Assembly (NCBI RefSeq): GCF_030253515.1
Contig: NZ_CP124549.1
Span: forward strand, 330,001-362,000
Source: Candidatus Nanosynbacter lyticus
GTDB taxonomy: Bacteria > Patescibacteriota > Saccharimonadia > Saccharimonadales > Saccharimonadaceae
Length of the DNA: 32,000 bases
Direction of reading: 5' to 3'
Each line of letters begins with the position of its first letter. Positions within the stretch are counted from its first letter, which is position 1. The translations under genes were made by a program, and so were the position numbers. A model generated the notes under the pieces. That model searched no databases. It saw nothing but the letters and a program-made list of their open reading frames with translations, and had not been told where the DNA came from. This document shows, one piece after another, positions 15,827 to 31,568 of this stretch.

Positions 15827-17139
15827 GCTTGTTCACCGATACCTATCGACCGTCGATTAACGGCATCGTTTTTGTGGTCGAATCGCTCAAGCGCGAGCTC
15901 GAGGCGCTGGGTCATGACGTCTATGTGTTCTGCCCCGCCAAGTCGATAAATCCGGCCAAGCAGGCTGAGCTACTTAACGAAGACCCGGATTCGCACATCG
16001 TCCGCTTTCCATCGATCAAGGGTGCGTTTTTTGATGATTACGATACGTCGGTGTTCTTCCCGCCGGTGGTGCAGCGCCGTATCAAAGAGCTGGAGCTCGA
16101 CATCGTGCATATCTTTACGCCGTCGCAAATCGGGCTGGTTGGCGTCAGTGCGGCGCACAAGCAGCAGATCCCCCTCGTCATCCAGCACTGCACCGATATG
16201 TACGAATTTGCCGAGCATTATCCGGCGGTGCTGCCGGGGATTTTGACACTGGCCGGCGTGGTGCTACCACTGTCGATTAAGCTAAGGGGCCGTGATTTAT
16301 TTGAACTGGTCAAGCTATATCGGCCGCGTGGTATCACCAAATGGAACCGGGCCATCATCGAGTGCGTCATCACTATTCTCTACAGCAAAGCCGACGCCGT
16401 CATCGCCCTCAGTCGCAAAAGCGTCGCTCAGCTCAGCGGCTGGCAGGATGACGATCATCTGTATGATTTGACATTGCTGCCAAATGGTGTCAATGCCCTG
16501 CCGCGGCCGTCGGCGGCTCAGCTCAAGGCCTTTCGGGCAGGGTGGGGTCTCCGGGCGTCTGATGAAGTGTTTGGTTTCATCGGGCGGCTGGGCGAAGAGA
16601 AAAACTTACCAATTTTGATCAAGGCCTTTGACAAGTACGTCGCCAAGGCTCGCCCCAAATCCAAATTACTGTTCGTTGGCGATTTCGAGTATCGCAAAAG
16701 ACTCGAGGAGATGGCAGCCGAGAGTAAGTACGCTGATCGGATCATCTTTACCGGCGCTCTGCCGCGTGAGGAATTAGGCGTAGCGTATCAGGCACTGGAT
16801 GTGTTTTGCTTCCCGTCGCTCAAGGATACCCAGGGCTGGGTACTACACGAAGCGGCGCACGCCCGTAAGCCAATTATCATCATTGACACGCAAGTATCCG
16901 AGGTGGTGCGTGACGGTGTGAACGGTATGTTCGTGAAAAATCGGCCCAAGAGTATGGCAGATGCTATCATTACACTGCTCCGTTCGCCAGCTCGTCGAGC
17001 GAGGTTTGGCGCTGAGAGCAAAAAATTAGCGGCCACGTTCACCGAGCGCCGTCAGGTCCGCAAATTAGAGAAATTATATCGCCGGGTTATCGCCCAGAAA
17101 GCTGCCGCCGCGTCTCGCGATCTTGATCGCGCCGCTTGA
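15817..17139 (+). CDS. Glycosyltransferase family 4, glycolipid-synthase-like (diacylglycerol glycosyltransferase type)
   Basis: The N-terminus MRVGLFTDTYRPSINGIV is typical of GT4 lipid glycosyltransferases. C-terminal core is FCFPSLKDTQGWVLHEAAHARKPIII...VRDGVNG. Confidence 0.8.
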   Translation: MRVGLFTDTYRPSINGIVFVVESLKRELEALGHDVYVFCPAKSINPAKQAELLNEDPDSHIVRFPSIKGAFFDDYDTSVFFPPVVQRRIKELELDIVHIFTPSQIGLVGVSAAHKQQIPLVIQHCTDMYEFAEHYPAVLPGILTLAGVVLPLSIKLRGRDLFELVKLYRPRGITKWNRAIIECVITILYSKADAVIALSRKSVAQLSGWQDDDHLYDLTLLPNGVNALPRPSAAQLKAFRAGWGLRASDEVFGFIGRLGEEKNLPILIKAFDKYVAKARPKSKLLFVGDFEYRKRLEEMAAESKYADRIIFTGALPREELGVAYQALDVFCFPSLKDTQGWVLHEAAHARKPIIIIDTQVSEVVRDGVNGMFVKNRPKSMADAIITLLRSPARRARFGAESKKLAATFTERRQVRKLEKLYRRVIAQKAAAASRDLDRAA

Positions 17140-17566
17140 TGGTCTCGCGCTTGTCGTAGGTTTTTTTACCTCTGGCCAGAGCGATGACTACTTTAATGAA
17201 CTTGCCGCTGGTTAATAATTTGGTCGGCACGATGGTCATGCCCTGCTTTTTTGCCTCAGAAAAGCGCGCTAATTGGCGTTTGCTGACTAATAATTTCCGC
17301 GCCGAGGTGTCGACACTGCGAGTATTTGCCTGGCCGCGAACGTTCAGCCGCAGCGAAAAGCTCGCGTTATTCAGCCATAATTCACCATTTCGCATGCTAA
17401 CGAACGCTCCCTTCAGCTGTACGTGCCCTTCCCTGGCGGCGCGCACTTCTATGCCCGTCAGCACCAGCCCGGCCACAACCTCCTCGCCCAATTCATAGTC
17501 AAATCGCGCTCGGCGATTCACGACGGCGTGAGTGGATGACTTTTTGGTCTTGGTGGGCTTGGTCAC
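17087..17566 (-). CDS. smpB: SsrA-binding protein
   Basis: NRRARFDYEL, GIEVRAAREG, a GELWLNN-type core and a basic C-terminal tail (KKTYDKRETIKRRDQDRE). GTG start. The 3' end overlaps the convergent GT gene by 53 nt. Confidence 0.9.
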   Translation of the reverse strand: MTKPTKTKKSSTHAVVNRRARFDYELGEEVVAGLVLTGIEVRAAREGHVQLKGAFVSMRNGELWLNNASFSLRLNVRGQANTRSVDTSARKLLVSKRQLARFSEAKKQGMTIVPTKLLTSGKFIKVVIALARGKKTYDKRETIKRRDQDRETRRQLSGR

Positions 17567-19216: not shown

Positions 19217-21151
19217 ATGATAGCCGACATCCACATCACCGAAAAAAGTTTTGGCGACAAGACGTTGATGCGCGACGTTAAGTTTAGTGTGGATGATGGC
19301 GAGAAGGTTGGCGTGGTCGGCCGCAATGGCGTCGGCAAGTCGACGTTGTTTGGGGTTTTGGCGGGCGCTGACACTGACTACACCGGCGAGGTGATTTTTC
19401 GCCGCGGCATCACCGTGGCGTCAACGGCGCAGGAGCATCATGGCTTGGGCGACCAGACGGTGCTGAGTTACATTTTGGCGGGGCTGCCAGAATATGCGGC
19501 CCTAAAGAAAATCATTGATGAATACCCTGAGACTATGGGCGATAATATGCGTAAAATTGAGGGGTATACCCAGGCGCTGGAGCGATTTGACCAGAAAGGG
19601 TTTTACCAGATTGAGGAGAAGATTGAGAGGGAGCTTGATAATTTCCAGCTGAATGGGTGCGGCGAGCGGCCGCTTGGTTCTCTGTCGGGTGGTCAGAAGC
19701 GACTGGTGGAGATCGTCAAGATTATGCATGCGGGGGCGCATTTGGCGCTGATTGATGAGCCGACTAATCACATGGATTATGTAGCGAAGCAGCAGTTTAT
19801 CGACTGGATGAGTTCGCAGCCGCGCCAGGCCATGCTGATCATCACCCACGACCGCGATGTGCTGGGTCGGGTAGATCGAATCGTCGAACTTAAAGACGGC
19901 CAAGCGGTCAGTTACCGCGGTAATTATGACGCTTACCTCAAACAGAACGCTCAGGCGACGGCGGCGGGCATGAATAATTTTGAGCACATTGAAAAGCGGA
20001 TGACCAACCTCAAACAAAAAGTGCTGGATTATCAGCGGCTAAAGGAAAAGTCGCGAAATCCCGGCACCATCCAAAAGTTCAAGCGGCTGGAGAATGAAGC
20101 GCGGGCCGAGCTGGCGGAATTATCAGAGATGGACAAGCCGACGTTTTGGATCGACAAGGAATCGGCTGGACAGCTTGATTATAAGTCAGCTGAGCGCTAC
20201 GGCAAGTTCAAGGCGCGCAATATTCGGCTATCGATGAAGGACGCGGCTAGTCGTAGCCAGCACGTGCTGGTGCGGGTTGAGGACGCGGCGGTTGGTGTTG
20301 GCGAGCGGATATTGTTTGAGGGCGTTAATATTGATTTGCGCGAGGGTGAGGCGGTGGAGTTGCGCGGTCGCAATGGCGCTGGTAAGACGACGCTGATTCG
20401 GATGTTGCTGGCAAGCGGTGGTGTGGTTGCTCGGGCATCTCATAAAACAATCCGGGACCCGCTAAAGCCAGCCCAGATTTTTTCTGAGATACCGCTCGCA
20501 CCCAACGCGCTGACTGCGACACCTCTAGCACTGGAGTGTGCTTTGGAGGAGACGGCTGGAAAACGAACCGCAGCAGCCGCTCCACCGTCCTCCGCCAGAG
20601 CACACTCTTCGCTCAAATCTCCACCGGAGATTTTTCGCGAGCGTTCGGCTGAAACGTCCGCTACTCGCGAACGTTTCACAGTCTCTGGCGTAGGAGGTGT
20701 CGCACCTGCCGCCCCCGTCCTCTACTCCGGCAACCTCTTCCTCGACCCGCAGGTACGGGTGGGCGTGTATGAGCAAGAGATTGACGAGCGGTATTTGGCG
20801 GATCCGCTGGAGGCGGCGATTGAGAAATTGTATCTGAGCCGTGACCTACCGATTTCTGAGACTAAGATTCGCCAACTACTAGCCGATTATCTGTTCACCG
20901 AAGCCGATCGGATGACGCCACTGGCGCGCCTGTCGGGCGGTCAAAAAGCCCGCTTTCAGATCATTGCCATGCTGGCGAATGACCCGCAACTATTGATTTT
21001 GGATGAGCCGACCAACCACCTTGATCTGCCGAGCATCGAGGAGTTAGAGACGGCGCTGGCGAAATATTCTGGCGCCATCCTGTACGTCAGCCACGACAAT
21101 TATTTCCGCCAAGAAATTGGCGGTGAGGTGGTGCAAATCGGCGCGGCATAA
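19217..21151 (+). CDS. ABC-F family ATPase (two ABC domains, no TM domain) carrying a 98-codon insertion in domain 2
   Basis: NBD1: GRNGVGKST, LSGGQKRLV, LALIDEPTNHMD, ITHDR. NBD2: GRNGAGKTT (20366-20392), Q-loop VGVYEQ (20759-20776), LSGGQKARF, LLILDEPTNHLD, VSHD. A charged interdomain linker lies between them. Confidence 0.88.
   Translation: MIADIHITEKSFGDKTLMRDVKFSVDDGEKVGVVGRNGVGKSTLFGVLAGADTDYTGEVIFRRGITVASTAQEHHGLGDQTVLSYILAGLPEYAALKKIIDEYPETMGDNMRKIEGYTQALERFDQKGFYQIEEKIERELDNFQLNGCGERPLGSLSGGQKRLVEIVKIMHAGAHLALIDEPTNHMDYVAKQQFIDWMSSQPRQAMLIITHDRDVLGRVDRIVELKDGQAVSYRGNYDAYLKQNAQATAAGMNNFEHIEKRMTNLKQKVLDYQRLKEKSRNPGTIQKFKRLENEARAELAELSEMDKPTFWIDKESAGQLDYKSAERYGKFKARNIRLSMKDAASRSQHVLVRVEDAAVGVGERILFEGVNIDLREGEAVELRGRNGAGKTTLIRMLLASGGVVARASHKTIRDPLKPAQIFSEIPLAPNALTATPLALECALEETAGKRTAAAAPPSSARAHSSLKSPPEIFRERSAETSATRERFTVSGVGGVAPAAPVLYSGNLFLDPQVRVGVYEQEIDERYLADPLEAAIEKLYLSRDLPISETKIRQLLADYLFTEADRMTPLARLSGGQKARFQIIAMLANDPQLLILDEPTNHLDLPSIEELETALAKYSGAILYVSHDNYFRQEIGGEVVQIGAA
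20423..20716 (+). other. In-frame, stop-free, hairpin-dense insertion within ABC-F NBD2
   Basis: An 11-bp long-range helix (20515-20525 / 20694-20704) encloses three local perfect hairpins (20534-20607, 20615-20633, 20634-20671). The encoded peptide is low-complexity and A/P/S/T/R-rich. Confidence 0.6.
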
Positions 21152-21165
21152 GGGGTGTGCTAATG

Positions 21166-21206
21166 AAAAACCTGCTACTAGTAGAGCCCTCAAGTAGCAG
21201 GTTTTT
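21166..21206. terminator. Bidirectional rho-independent terminator between convergent ABC-F and glutaredoxin-like genes
   Basis: Sequence is AAAAACCTGCTACT, a 13-nt loop, then AGTAGCAGGTTTTT: a perfect 9-bp GC-containing stem flanked by an A-run and a T-run. Confidence 0.75.
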
Positions 21207-21226
21207 AATATGTCAATTAGCGATAG

Positions 21227-29553: not shown

Positions 29554-30645
29554 TTATTGATCATCCAGTAATTGGCGGACTTCGTCGGTGCTGGTGGTGT
29601 GCATCAATTGCTCGCGCAGTTCCTTGGCGCCGTCGAAGTCGCGGATGTAGATTTTGAAGAAGCGTTTTAGGGTTTCAAAGGGGCGGCCGAGGGTTGGCTG
29701 GTAGTGGTCAAAGAGGTCGAGGTGGTAATGTAGTAGATATATAAGCTCTGATTTAGTATTGTCGCTCCCGTCGTCGCCGTCTCCGACGGCACGTAGGTCG
29801 CTAAACGCGGGTCCTGCTAGTCGGTCCGCCCCTTCTTCTGAAAAATCAGAGATTTGTTCAGAAGTGGGTGCTGCCCCGCCGACTATCACCCGCTTATCCT
29901 CGATCTCCGAAGACACTCCGCCTTTCCGAAAACAAAACGGATCGCTGAAAATTCCCCGCCCAATCATAATGCCGTTGATGCCGGGGTGCTGACGGGCGAG
30001 CTCTTTGCCTTGAGCGCGGTTGCGGATGTCGCCGTTGATGGTTAGTAACGTTCGTGGGGCGATTTCGTCACGTAGTTTGATGATGTCGTCGATGAGTTCG
30101 TAGTGCGCCGGGACTTTGCTCATTTCTTTCTTGGTGCGCAGGTGGATGGTTAGATTGACAATATCTTGTCGCAAAATAGTCGCGAGCCATTCGCGCCATT
30201 CATCGACATGGGTGTAGCCCAGCCTGGTTTTGACACTGACGGGCAACCTGGCAGTTTTGGCGGCGGCGATGGCAGCAACTGCTACGTCAGGTCGGCGGAT
30301 GAGCGCTGCGCCACCAGATTTGATGGCGGATTTGGCGGGACAGCCCATGTTGATGTCGATGCCGTCAAAGCCGAGCCTGGCACAATAGCCAGCAAATTGC
30401 TCCATATCCCCTGGTTCGCCGCCCCAGATTTGGGCGACCAGCGGATGCTCGTCGTCGGTTTTGACCAACCGCCCAGCGATGGCTTTGTCGCCGGCGTGCA
30501 CCCAGCCGGTGGCATTGGCAAATTCGGTGAAAAACACATCGGGGGCGCCCGCCCTTTTCACGACATGGCGAAAGACGACGTCGGTGACGGCCTCCATGGG
30601 TGCCAAAATGAAAAATGGCTGTGGTAGATTGTCCCAAAAGGTCAT
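29554..30645 (-). CDS. tRNA-dihydrouridine synthase (Dus family) with a ~58-codon insertion before the C-terminal helical domain
   Basis: LAPMEAVTD, DINMGCPAKS (catalytic Cys), VKTRLG and IMIGRGIFSDPF. The ATG lies 2 nt after the Fic gene stop. Confidence 0.85.
   Translation of the reverse strand: MTFWDNLPQPFFILAPMEAVTDVVFRHVVKRAGAPDVFFTEFANATGWVHAGDKAIAGRLVKTDDEHPLVAQIWGGEPGDMEQFAGYCARLGFDGIDINMGCPAKSAIKSGGAALIRRPDVAVAAIAAAKTARLPVSVKTRLGYTHVDEWREWLATILRQDIVNLTIHLRTKKEMSKVPAHYELIDDIIKLRDEIAPRTLLTINGDIRNRAQGKELARQHPGINGIMIGRGIFSDPFCFRKGGVSSEIEDKRVIVGGAAPTSEQISDFSEEGADRLAGPAFSDLRAVGDGDDGSDNTKSELIYLLHYHLDLFDHYQPTLGRPFETLKRFFKIYIRDFDGAKELREQLMHTTSTDEVRQLLDDQ
29752..29925 (-). other. In-frame acidic/Gly/Ser-rich insertion in Dus containing strong hairpins
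   Basis: A 13-bp stem with one bulge (29835-29847 / 29851-29864) and the hairpin GCCGTC-tcc-GACGGC (29776-29790). The peptide GGVSSEIEDKR...GDGDDGSDNTK interrupts conserved Dus blocks. The boundaries are approximate. Confidence 0.45.
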
Positions 30646-30647
30646 GT

Positions 30648-31568
30648 TCACGTCACCAGTCCTTTGCTAAACAATATACTTTCCGCGATAAATAGACGCA
30701 GCGCCTCCAGCTCGCCGCGAACCTGCGCTCGCTCCAGATAGGTATAGTACGCTCGCTTGCGCTCTTTGGCGACGAGGGGTGGCACCAACCCCAGTTGTAG
30801 GGCCTGGACAAAGAGCAAGAGTCGCCCGGTGCGACCGTTGCCATCGCTAAACGGATGGATTTTTTCAAATGTCGCATGAGTACGGGCTAGCCATTCTATC
30901 GGCTCTGTTTTGGGTAATTTGTTCATTTCGTCAACACACTCGGACATCGCTTCAGTAATGCGCAGATGGTTTACTGTTGTGACGCGACTACCCATGATGC
31001 GCACACCGTGCCGGCGGTAGAGTCCGGCGTCAGACACCAGCGTGTTCATCAGCCGGACGTGCGTTTGCAAGATCAGCTCTTCGCTCCACGTAAAATGCGT
31101 CCCTTCTTTGTGTAAGGCATCCAGCAGAAAGTAGAGCGCAGTACGGTGGTTACGGGCCTCTATCTGTTCGCGCGCTGTCTTGTTGGCGAGGACGCGATTA
31201 TCATCGTTCAGCACCTCTGCGACGTCCGCTAGGGTCATTGTGCTACCCTCGATCGTGTTCGTGTGGTAGGTCAAGTGGAGCGTCAGGATGTCAAGTAATT
31301 CTTGATTCGCCAGGAGTGTCCGGATCGTCATGCGGCTGGCCTGGGCGGCACGTTCAGTAGCGAGGCGCTTCGCCTCGTCGATGGTGTCCCGCCCGAGCAT
31401 CTCTTGATGTAATAGCTGAATATTCGCCAGGTTTTTGGCACGCGGCGACATATGTTGGTGTACCCAGGCGTTGAGCGTACGCACCGGCACATCTAGGCGA
31501 CGCGCCAGTTGTTCTTGGGTAAGGCCTGTCCGCACCAGAATTTCTTGGAGTAATTGCGCAGCATTCAT
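30648..31568 (-). CDS. HTH (XRE-type) plus Fic-domain protein (AMPylase-type Fido enzyme with an intramolecular inhibitory motif)
   Basis: N-terminal HTH (LTQEQLARRLDVPVRTLNAWV), Fic motif HPFSDGNGRTGR, and upstream TNTIEG matching the (S/T)xxxE(G/N) inhibitory helix. Confidence 0.9.
   Translation of the reverse strand: MNAAQLLQEILVRTGLTQEQLARRLDVPVRTLNAWVHQHMSPRAKNLANIQLLHQEMLGRDTIDEAKRLATERAAQASRMTIRTLLANQELLDILTLHLTYHTNTIEGSTMTLADVAEVLNDDNRVLANKTAREQIEARNHRTALYFLLDALHKEGTHFTWSEELILQTHVRLMNTLVSDAGLYRRHGVRIMGSRVTTVNHLRITEAMSECVDEMNKLPKTEPIEWLARTHATFEKIHPFSDGNGRTGRLLLFVQALQLGLVPPLVAKERKRAYYTYLERAQVRGELEALRLFIAESILFSKGLVT

Follow-up and report, generated by a model that had tools for sequence, protein, structure and literature searches.

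What is a strongly folded segment of 294 nucleotides (nt) doing inside the second ATPase domain of a bacterial ABC-F protein? The question is raised by a gene of Candidatus Nanosynbacter lyticus, a member of the Saccharibacteria, that lies on a 32,000-nt stretch of contig NZ_CP124549.1 (positions 330,001 to 362,000), which we refer to as the window. An earlier interpretation of this stretch, made from its letters alone (the sequence-only reading), proposed that the segment is a DNA- or RNA-level element living in frame within a coding sequence (CDS), comparable to the Rickettsia palindromic elements (RPEs), or else an undescribed intervening element, rather than an ordinary protein domain. Our results support the RPE-like proposal. 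[quoted passage not shown]

The gene, the two motifs that bracket the insert, and the 98 open codons between them were all found where the sequence-only reading had placed them:

19217-21151, forward strand: host gene, an open reading frame (ORF) for an ABC-F ATPase of 644 aa (Pfam ABC_tran twice and ABC_tran_Xtn)
20366-20392, forward strand: Walker A motif of ABC domain 2, GRNGAGKTT; the helix after it stops just before the insert
20423-20716, forward strand: the whole composite insert, 294 nt or 98 codons, open in the sense frame
20759-20776, forward strand: Q-loop of ABC domain 2, VGVYEQ, marking the return to host sequence

The product of this ORF is 100% identical to the annotated Candidatus Nanosynbacter lyticus protein. 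Its membership in ABC-F follows from the two ABC domains and the linker detected by Pfam and from the Walker A and B, Q-loop, signature, and H-loop motifs visible in the translation, and its closest relatives in the PDB are VmlR/ExpZ, YheS, Uup, and YbiT. Both ABC domains and all catalytic motifs are intact, and outside the insert the protein is under normal protein-level purifying selection. An AlphaFold2 model built from an 18-sequence alignment had a mean pLDDT (predicted local distance difference test score) of 33, and the site was placed by sequence alignment to solved ABC-F proteins instead: the insert occupies the turn directly following the Walker A helix of domain 2. The spacing is abnormal, as had been claimed. 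Alignment with VmlR/ExpZ (6ha8_V) shows the Walker A helix of that protein running to residue 345 and a strand following from residue 350, which leaves about 4 residues where the window protein has 104. Pfam found no match inside the 98-aa insert of the ABC-F protein, and the tryptic peptides that the insert encodes include SPPEIFR, SAETSATR, and FTVSGVGGVAPAAPVLYSGNLFLDPQVR. A chromodomain is inserted in the second ABC domain (ABC2) of fungal eEF3, which means that the domain-2 fold of ABC-F proteins can accommodate a large extra segment following the Walker A region; that chromodomain is a folded conserved domain with a role at the ribosome, not a repeat element.

Orthologous loci show that the insert is a variable feature of this gene. 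A scan of one genome per species (GTDB) gave 80 loci and, together with loci fetched earlier and the window, 81 resolved segments between Walker A and the Q-loop. The segment is free of any insert in 33 of the 81 (43 aa in 32 species, among them Nanosynbacter TM7-008, -075, -076, and -087, and 47 aa in one more); it measures 85, 100-118, 133-135, 143-144, 164-165, or 177 aa in 44 others, and in four distant Saccharibacteria the same loop holds unrelated inserts of 80-108 aa. Absent in a large group of species-level genomes and otherwise 85-177 codons long, the segment is not one that is conserved at the same length. None of the 81 contains a stop codon. The sequence-only reading had counted 98 extra codons: all 98 are there and open, but the net excess over insert-free orthologs is 92, because about 6 codons have been replaced. 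The inserts are mosaics at the DNA level, made of modules that we designate A (the type in the window), B (the TM7x type), C (a long GC-rich hairpin), and D (the conserved 3' part), and their architectures combine modules A, B, and C with a core that is forward, reversed, or absent. These architectures are scattered among close relatives in a neighbor-joining tree of the flanking CDS, where the insert-free species form a sister clade. When the 98-aa peptide was used to search a representative library, only 8 matches were returned; this low number is probably explained by clustering of the library at 50% identity, which hides inserts in conserved host proteins.

The same DNA is also found in other genes. 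We searched a metagenome collection for exact matches to the 19-mer GCGTTCGGCTGAAACGTCC, which is invariant in both orientations of the core, and found it in at least 120 stretches. Among the matches listed, to which all copy numbers below refer, about 24 are in ABC-F genes, and about 90 have a match of 105-173 nt (78-96%) to the insert but no ABC-F flanks. The host genes of these copies were classified by tblastn and confirmed by Pfam:

RNase HII-YraN fusion, interdomain linker: 34 copies, 19 sense, 14 antisense, and 1 unassigned
Der/EngA GTPase, first G domain: about 18 copies, all antisense
topoisomerase I (TopA): about 12 copies, 4 sense and 8 antisense
LeuRS: about 6 copies, sense
Dus: about 4 copies, antisense
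intergenic, between convergent ppa and relA/spoT-like genes: 14 copies
chance 19-mer matches: 5

Thus, related strains carry further copies in six contexts besides ABC-F, and six of the seven distinct sites lie inside CDSs called essential. In every genic case, the element leaves the host ORF unbroken. Because such full-length host ORFs recur in many independent assemblies, the copies outside ABC-F are unlikely to be artifacts. Two contigs have two copies each (L094 + L132 and L121 + L155), one of them pairing ABC-F with Der and the other the intergenic site with RnhB, and module B was also detected by blastn in Der and in the intergenic site. A search of RnhB-YraN homologs revealed no empty site, as all top matches carry at least half of the core. 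Three RNase HII-YraN proteins (P0188, P0189, and P0231, 338-341 aa) have lost all but the 5' half of the core, and these variants indicate that internal deletions of the palindrome occur and are tolerated.

The intergenic copy (L107/L094 and 12 similar loci) is a composite of module B and a long core; in public data it is called as a 157-aa hypothetical protein (P0121), which is probably a spurious ORF created by the open frame of the element. Several contigs (L161, L141, L136, L199, and L144) fuse two host genes exactly at the repeat, with the N-terminal portion coming from one gene and the C-terminal portion from the other (LeuRS to TopA, Dus to TopA, LeuRS to RnhB, and Der to TopA). Most likely, these are assembly chimeras caused by the repeat rather than products of real recombination. 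A scan of viral contigs gave one match, to a contig that also holds the 19-mer by chance, without extended similarity.

Aligning copies from different hosts delimits the core as an element of about 117-122 nt. Our best reading of the insert in the window is that of a composite of dispersed palindromic repeats, namely module A, a remnant of inverted element ends, and one core of about 120 nt:

20432-20506, forward strand: module A, a hairpin repeat of about 75 nt with arms at 20434-20447 and 20480-20493
20515-20580, forward strand: left extension, with an incomplete, inverted copy of both core termini and the "long-core" leader GGAGGAGACGGCTGGAA
20581-20702, forward strand: core palindromic element of subfamily 1 in sense orientation, encoding PPSSARAHSSLKSPPEIFRERSAETSATRERFTVSGVGGV
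20583-20600, forward strand: left terminal inverted repeat CACCGTCCTCCGCCAGAG, forming the outer helix (16 pairs, 8 changed on both sides)
20615-20633, forward strand: inner hairpin 1 of the core, AAATCTCC ACC GGAGATTT, with 95% of cells paired and 2 pairs with compensatory changes
20641-20659, forward strand: the invariant 19-mer, its 3' part overlapped by inner hairpin 2
20650-20678, forward strand: inner hairpin 2 of the core, TGAAACGTCCGC...GCGAACGTTTCA, 97% paired
20683-20699, forward strand: right terminal inverted repeat CTCTGGCGTAGGAGGTG, which pairs with the left one

The core is Y-shaped, with an outer stem formed by the terminal inverted repeats (TIRs) and two inner hairpins. Across the family the TIRs, of about 17 nt, are CACCGTCCTCCGCCAGAG and CTCTGGCG(G/T)AGGAGGTG; outside them, each host site has an outer stem of its own, 10-12 bp long and again self-complementary. 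When run on the window with filters off, the covariance model R1 recovered the core with 146.9 bits (E = 4.8e-38) as its sole significant match. Module A encodes ARASHKTIRDPLKPAQIFSE in sense and SQKKSGLALAGPGLFY in antisense, and a blastn search with it matched loci of ABC-F, TopA, and Dus, the latter two in related strains, where the module is found in either orientation.

All helices that the sequence-only reading had drawn are present in the insert. Its 11-bp long-range helix (20515-20525 with 20694-20704) has 11 of 11 pairs; the pair GAGTGTGCT/AGCACACTC of its first hairpin belongs to a longer reverse-complementary pair of 27-nt arms (20534-20560 with 20581-20607) that match at 78%; and the pairs AAATCTCC/GGAGATTT and TTCGCGAG/CTCGCGAA of its second and third hairpins are there as well. 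The long-range helix and the first hairpin arise from the pairing of the left extension with the core. The left extension resembles the start of the reversed cores in L032 and may be what is left of a reversed copy that once lay beside the full forward copy. While its helices are real, the proposed four-way junction is thus better understood as the pairing of nested and partial repeat copies than as a dedicated RNA fold.

The strength of the fold is far beyond chance. The insert RNA has a minimum free energy of -128.5 kcal/mol, compared with -93.6 +/- 4.9 kcal/mol for 200 dinucleotide shuffles, none of which was as good (z = -7.07). Five control pieces of 294 nt from the same ABC-F gene gave z values of 0.0 to -1.8, every insert architecture among the orthologs gave values of -3.4 to -7.0, and the core alone, folded as DNA, gave -4.6. 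An inverted-repeat scan across the window detected nothing comparable elsewhere. Searches of Rfam returned only chance matches to miRNA hairpins (E > 1) for the region at E <= 10 and, in gathering mode, two tRNAs and nothing else for the whole window. The strong "RNA structure" is best explained by the palindromic nature of the elements, together with pairing among adjacent full and partial copies.

Unrelated inserts in the same ABC-F loop of distant Saccharibacteria range from a near-perfect palindrome of about 100 nt in a metagenome-assembled genome (L047, z = -6.4) to unstructured low-complexity sequence (L042, L049, and L050). Their presence makes this loop a general insertion hot spot, or permissive site, across the phylum. 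The Dus gene in the window (29554-30651, reverse strand) has a 48-aa low-complexity segment at about 29785-29928, exactly where the Dus genes of other strains carry module A and a reversed core. The segment has only weak structure (z = -2.1), the core model does not recognize it, and it may represent a decayed element or a different one.

The core is read from both sides. In ABC-F inserts of the 114- and 144-aa types (L016/L032), module D is reverse-complemented (minus-strand blastn matches of 122-134 nt with 81-84% identity), and the point at which the reversal switches is the same 11-bp inverted repeat that had been described as a long-range helix. Genes with a reversed core read the antisense frame (…KRSRGADVSAERSRSISSGD…), which is also the frame of the window antisense ORF 20440-20679, one of three antisense ORFs that the sequence-only reading had pointed out and that are all found in the ORF list. 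A core reversed in situ does not behave as a protein domain and thus fits a DNA-level palindromic element. Both orientations are present in ABC-F, RnhB, and TopA. Two subfamilies of the core differ by coordinated changes in their TIRs (CCAGAG/CTCTGG versus CTGGAG/CTCCAG); copies of the second, seen in Der, Dus, TopA, and ABC-F, all ran antisense to their host gene, whereas those of subfamily 1 run either way.

The reading frame is kept without exception. Among the matches listed, 98 of 98 CDS-embedded metagenome copies use one phase per orientation, and so do all 34 GTDB ABC-F copies; the proposal of an undescribed intervening element finds no support in this pattern. The frames in use are open in 42 (sense) and 40 (antisense) of 43 aligned copies, compared with 34 and 21 of 43 for the two unused frames, and they encode hydrophilic peptides rich in S, A, R, E, and P. 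A flip about the outer stem would convert the used sense phase into the used antisense phase.

Variation among copies follows the stems and not the codons. We evaluated a 43-pair structure on 42 distinct copies: 91.6% of the cells form standard pairs, compared with 30-49% when partners are slid by 1-3 columns, and changes on both sides affect 11 pairs and 77 cells, numbers that were reached by 2/500 and 0/500 shuffles, respectively. Compensatory changes thus back the stems, as a nucleic-acid-level element would lead one to expect. In 37 distinct forward-core ABC-F sequences, diversity at codon positions 1, 2, and 3 is 0.054, 0.091, and 0.034 within the element and 0.048, 0.027, and 0.241 in the adjoining 420 nt of ABC-F. 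The element shows no codon periodicity of the kind expected for a protein, that is, no third-position excess, and is about four-fold less diverse than the flanking synonymous sites; therefore, the insert peptide is not under purifying selection. The low diversity fits selection on the nucleic acid, recent spread, and/or homogenization among copies.

The cassette has moved between lineages at least in one case. In Minimicrobia vallesae IHU2 (L040, NZ_CP076459.1), the ABC-F flanks are 91-97% identical to those of the insert-free clade and about 80% identical to those of TM7x, yet the insert, 255 nt long, matches that of TM7x at 99.2% identity. A TM7x-like insert within flanks of the insert-free clade means that the cassette alone was passed horizontally. 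Comparison of this filled site with an empty one (L056) indicates that about 25 nt were replaced, with microhomology and no clean duplication.

We propose the following scenario. Within one Nanosynbacter clade, the elements would have colonized a surface loop of ABC-F. With a core length that is a multiple of three and one hydrophilic open frame per orientation, copies could persist in essential genes when they fall in loops or interdomain linkers, and only as long as they stay in phase and free of stop codons. They would be translated as low-complexity, probably disordered loops, with the host protein still working. Copies would then change by insertion beside or into each other, by internal deletion, and by flipping between their inverted-repeat arms, and they would be exchanged across loci and species by recombination.

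Several points weigh against this interpretation. Among the matches listed to an exact 19-mer, only seven distinct sites are represented; blastn and nhmmer searches with the insert and the covariance-model scan found no second copy in the 32-kb window; and empty sites were recovered for ABC-F and for no other host. The filled and empty ABC-F sites resolve no target-site duplication, and a search of 1.36 Mb of loci for an autonomous partner with the same ends (distant TIR pairs) gave only chance-level matches, so that the elements could owe their spread to recombination or gene conversion alone rather than to transposition. Complete conservation of the frame and the lack of stops suggest that the insert is translated. 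Finally, the compensatory evolution of the stems suggests something more than pure junk, possibly a function at the level of the nucleic acid.

This last point leads to the view that the folded mRNA or a DNA cruciform is useful to the cell and not merely selfish, in a role like that of repetitive extragenic palindromic (REP) elements, for example in mRNA stabilization or processing, in translational pausing for domain folding, or as a protein-binding site. The maintained stems and the diversity about four-fold below that of adjacent synonymous sites would agree with this, as would the copy between convergent genes, where REP-type elements often act. However, copies face either way with respect to the mRNA, 33 related species lack the element altogether in this gene, variants with half of the structure deleted persist, Rfam has no match, and recent spread or gene conversion explains the low diversity equally well. 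We consider such a function unlikely. An even less probable alternative, in our opinion very unlikely, is a programmed intragenic inverton, that is, a recombinase-driven switch that recodes the loop of ABC-F, RnhB, or TopA between two peptides within a population. Intragenic invertons that recode proteins are known in other bacteria (PMC10028968), and several features of the core recall such a switch: it is flanked by inverted repeats, three genes have it either way round at a single site, with both orientations open, and a flip about its outer stem would turn one used frame into the other. Orientation does not track the phylogeny of the flanks either, as mean flank similarities within and between orientation classes are about equal. 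On the other hand, the nearest opposite-orientation pairs (94%) are still about 6% apart in their flanks, both peptides are featureless low-complexity sequence, and the reversed ABC-F copies, with 81-84% identity, belong to a different subfamily, so that a recent flip of the forward copy does not account for them.

Two other explanations are contradicted by the data. That the insert is an ordinary lineage-specific protein segment, a disordered linker or small domain selected as a peptide with incidental palindromy, has next to no probability: the loop is permissive, distant Saccharibacteria fill it with unrelated inserts of 80-108 aa, three of which are unstructured as nucleotide sequence, and the frame is always kept, yet variation has no third-position excess, the same DNA is read in opposite orientations as unrelated peptides and recurs in six unrelated contexts, Pfam has no match, and the fold reaches z = -7. 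Hardly any credence can be given to an intervening sequence that is removed after transcription or translation (a group I or II intron, an intein, or a translational bypass). A compact structured element that interrupts a conserved catalytic domain might suggest one, but Rfam gave no intron match even at E <= 10, 98 aa are too short for an intein and have no Pfam match, and every variant in every host is open and a multiple of three in length, which would be needless if the segment were spliced out or bypassed. The intron, intein, and bypass readings were rejected on this constant conservation of frame and length.

A more far-reaching version of the palindromic-repeat interpretation, which we regard as rather unlikely, holds that the elements are structure-maintained, orientation-switchable coding cassettes that are moved or flipped by hairpin-dependent (single-strand) transposition or by recombination of environmental DNA. 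The evolution of the stems, the use of one hydrophilic frame per orientation despite other open frames, and the repeated independent inversions are compatible with it. If it were true, the cassettes would supply alternative surface loops on ABC-F, Der, TopA, LeuRS, Dus, and RNase HII and/or regulatory mRNA segments.

As selfish palindromic repeats tolerated in coding sequences, the Nanosynbacter elements work like RPEs, elements of about 150 bp found in frame in many unrelated genes, each of which encodes a conserved peptide predicted to be compatible with the host fold (Ogata et al. 2000, 2002, as summarized in PMC10969869). Both are small palindromic repeats (about 100-150 bp) of a host-dependent bacterium with a reduced genome; both occur in many copies in frame in unrelated housekeeping genes at fold-compatible positions, where they are translated (in our case presumably so), and both have intergenic copies too. 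The likeness is one of behavior and not of membership in RPE-1 to RPE-10: the Nanosynbacter elements are found in another phylum and are G+C-rich, and given this phylum and base composition, sequence homology with RPEs is unlikely. They also have about 7 sites (from the exact 19-mer), compared with 44 RPE copies in R. conorii. Furthermore, they encode peptides in both orientations, with an open frame for each, are flipped in place, are nested into multi-module composites, and show clear compensatory evolution of their stems, none of which is reported for RPEs in the review (PMC10969869).

Other known repeats share some of these features. Bacterial MITEs that make in-frame fusions, such as ERIC, QMITE of Coxiella, and the Anabaena MITEs (PMC10969869, PMC5896051), have the same non-autonomous size, TIRs, multiple dispersed copies, and occasional ORF-compatible intragenic insertions, but no target-site duplication or parent insertion sequence was identified for the Nanosynbacter element, and 6 of its 7 sites are in essential CDSs, in contrast to classical MITEs, most of which lie between genes. 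Intragenic invertons (PMC10028968) are likewise CDS segments flanked by inverted repeats that exist in two orientations and recode a stretch of protein with the frame kept; however, they are locus-specific switches and not a dispersed repeat family. REPs and the bacterial interspersed mosaic elements (BIMEs) that they form, with their REP-associated tyrosine transposases (RAYTs; PMC3733652), resemble the Nanosynbacter family in having hairpin repeats in mosaics, conserved structure, and a copy between convergent genes. REPs are 20-40 nt long and extragenic, in contrast to a mostly intragenic unit of about 120 nt, and no GTAG/CGTC tag was noted in the alignments of the Nanosynbacter element; we therefore do not assign it to the REPs. 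Long inverted repeats with both arms translated are tolerated in CDSs in the PARCEL repeats of Mollicutes (PMC2996958) and in mitochondrial genes of Nematomorpha (PMC6649704), but those are tandem or gene-specific repeats and not a dispersed family in conserved enzymes. Our literature search found no paper that joins Saccharibacteria, TM7x, or Nanosynbacter with RPEs, MITEs, or palindromic repeats, and the major comparative genomics study of the group (McLean et al. 2020) makes no mention of repeats or mobile elements. By analogy, the Nanosynbacter elements are best read as an RPE-like family in a new phylum that would be an independent parallel to that of Rickettsia.

The surroundings of the ABC-F gene are conserved in the window and in three other loci (L001, L003, and L004), in the order glycosyltransferase, smpB, two hypothetical genes, ABC-F, glutaredoxin, and ATP synthase operon. 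In the window, smpB (about 17087-17566, reverse strand) lies about 2 kb upstream of ABC-F, and neither ARAGORN nor Rfam detected a tmRNA gene. The stop codon of ABC-F is directly followed by a 17-bp stem and a T-run (21163-21209), an ordinary hairpin of the intrinsic-terminator type, common to this gene and the convergent glutaredoxin gene.

Until now, palindromic repeats that code for protein have been regarded as peculiar to Rickettsia. That an unrelated family behaves alike in Saccharibacteria, which are likewise tiny, depend on a host, and have reduced genomes, suggests convergence. Where a genome is compact and leaves little room between genes, selfish repeats may be channeled into those loops of essential proteins that tolerate them. 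There are also practical consequences. The repeats produce chimeric metagenome assemblies such as those joining LeuRS or Dus to TopA, give spurious ORF calls, and inflate the apparent divergence of proteins, and they serve as strain-level markers. Cultivated Saccharibacteria have recently become genetically tractable. Questions raised by RPEs, namely whether such insertions are translated, what they cost their host in fitness, and how they move and flip, would thus become directly testable in these bacteria.

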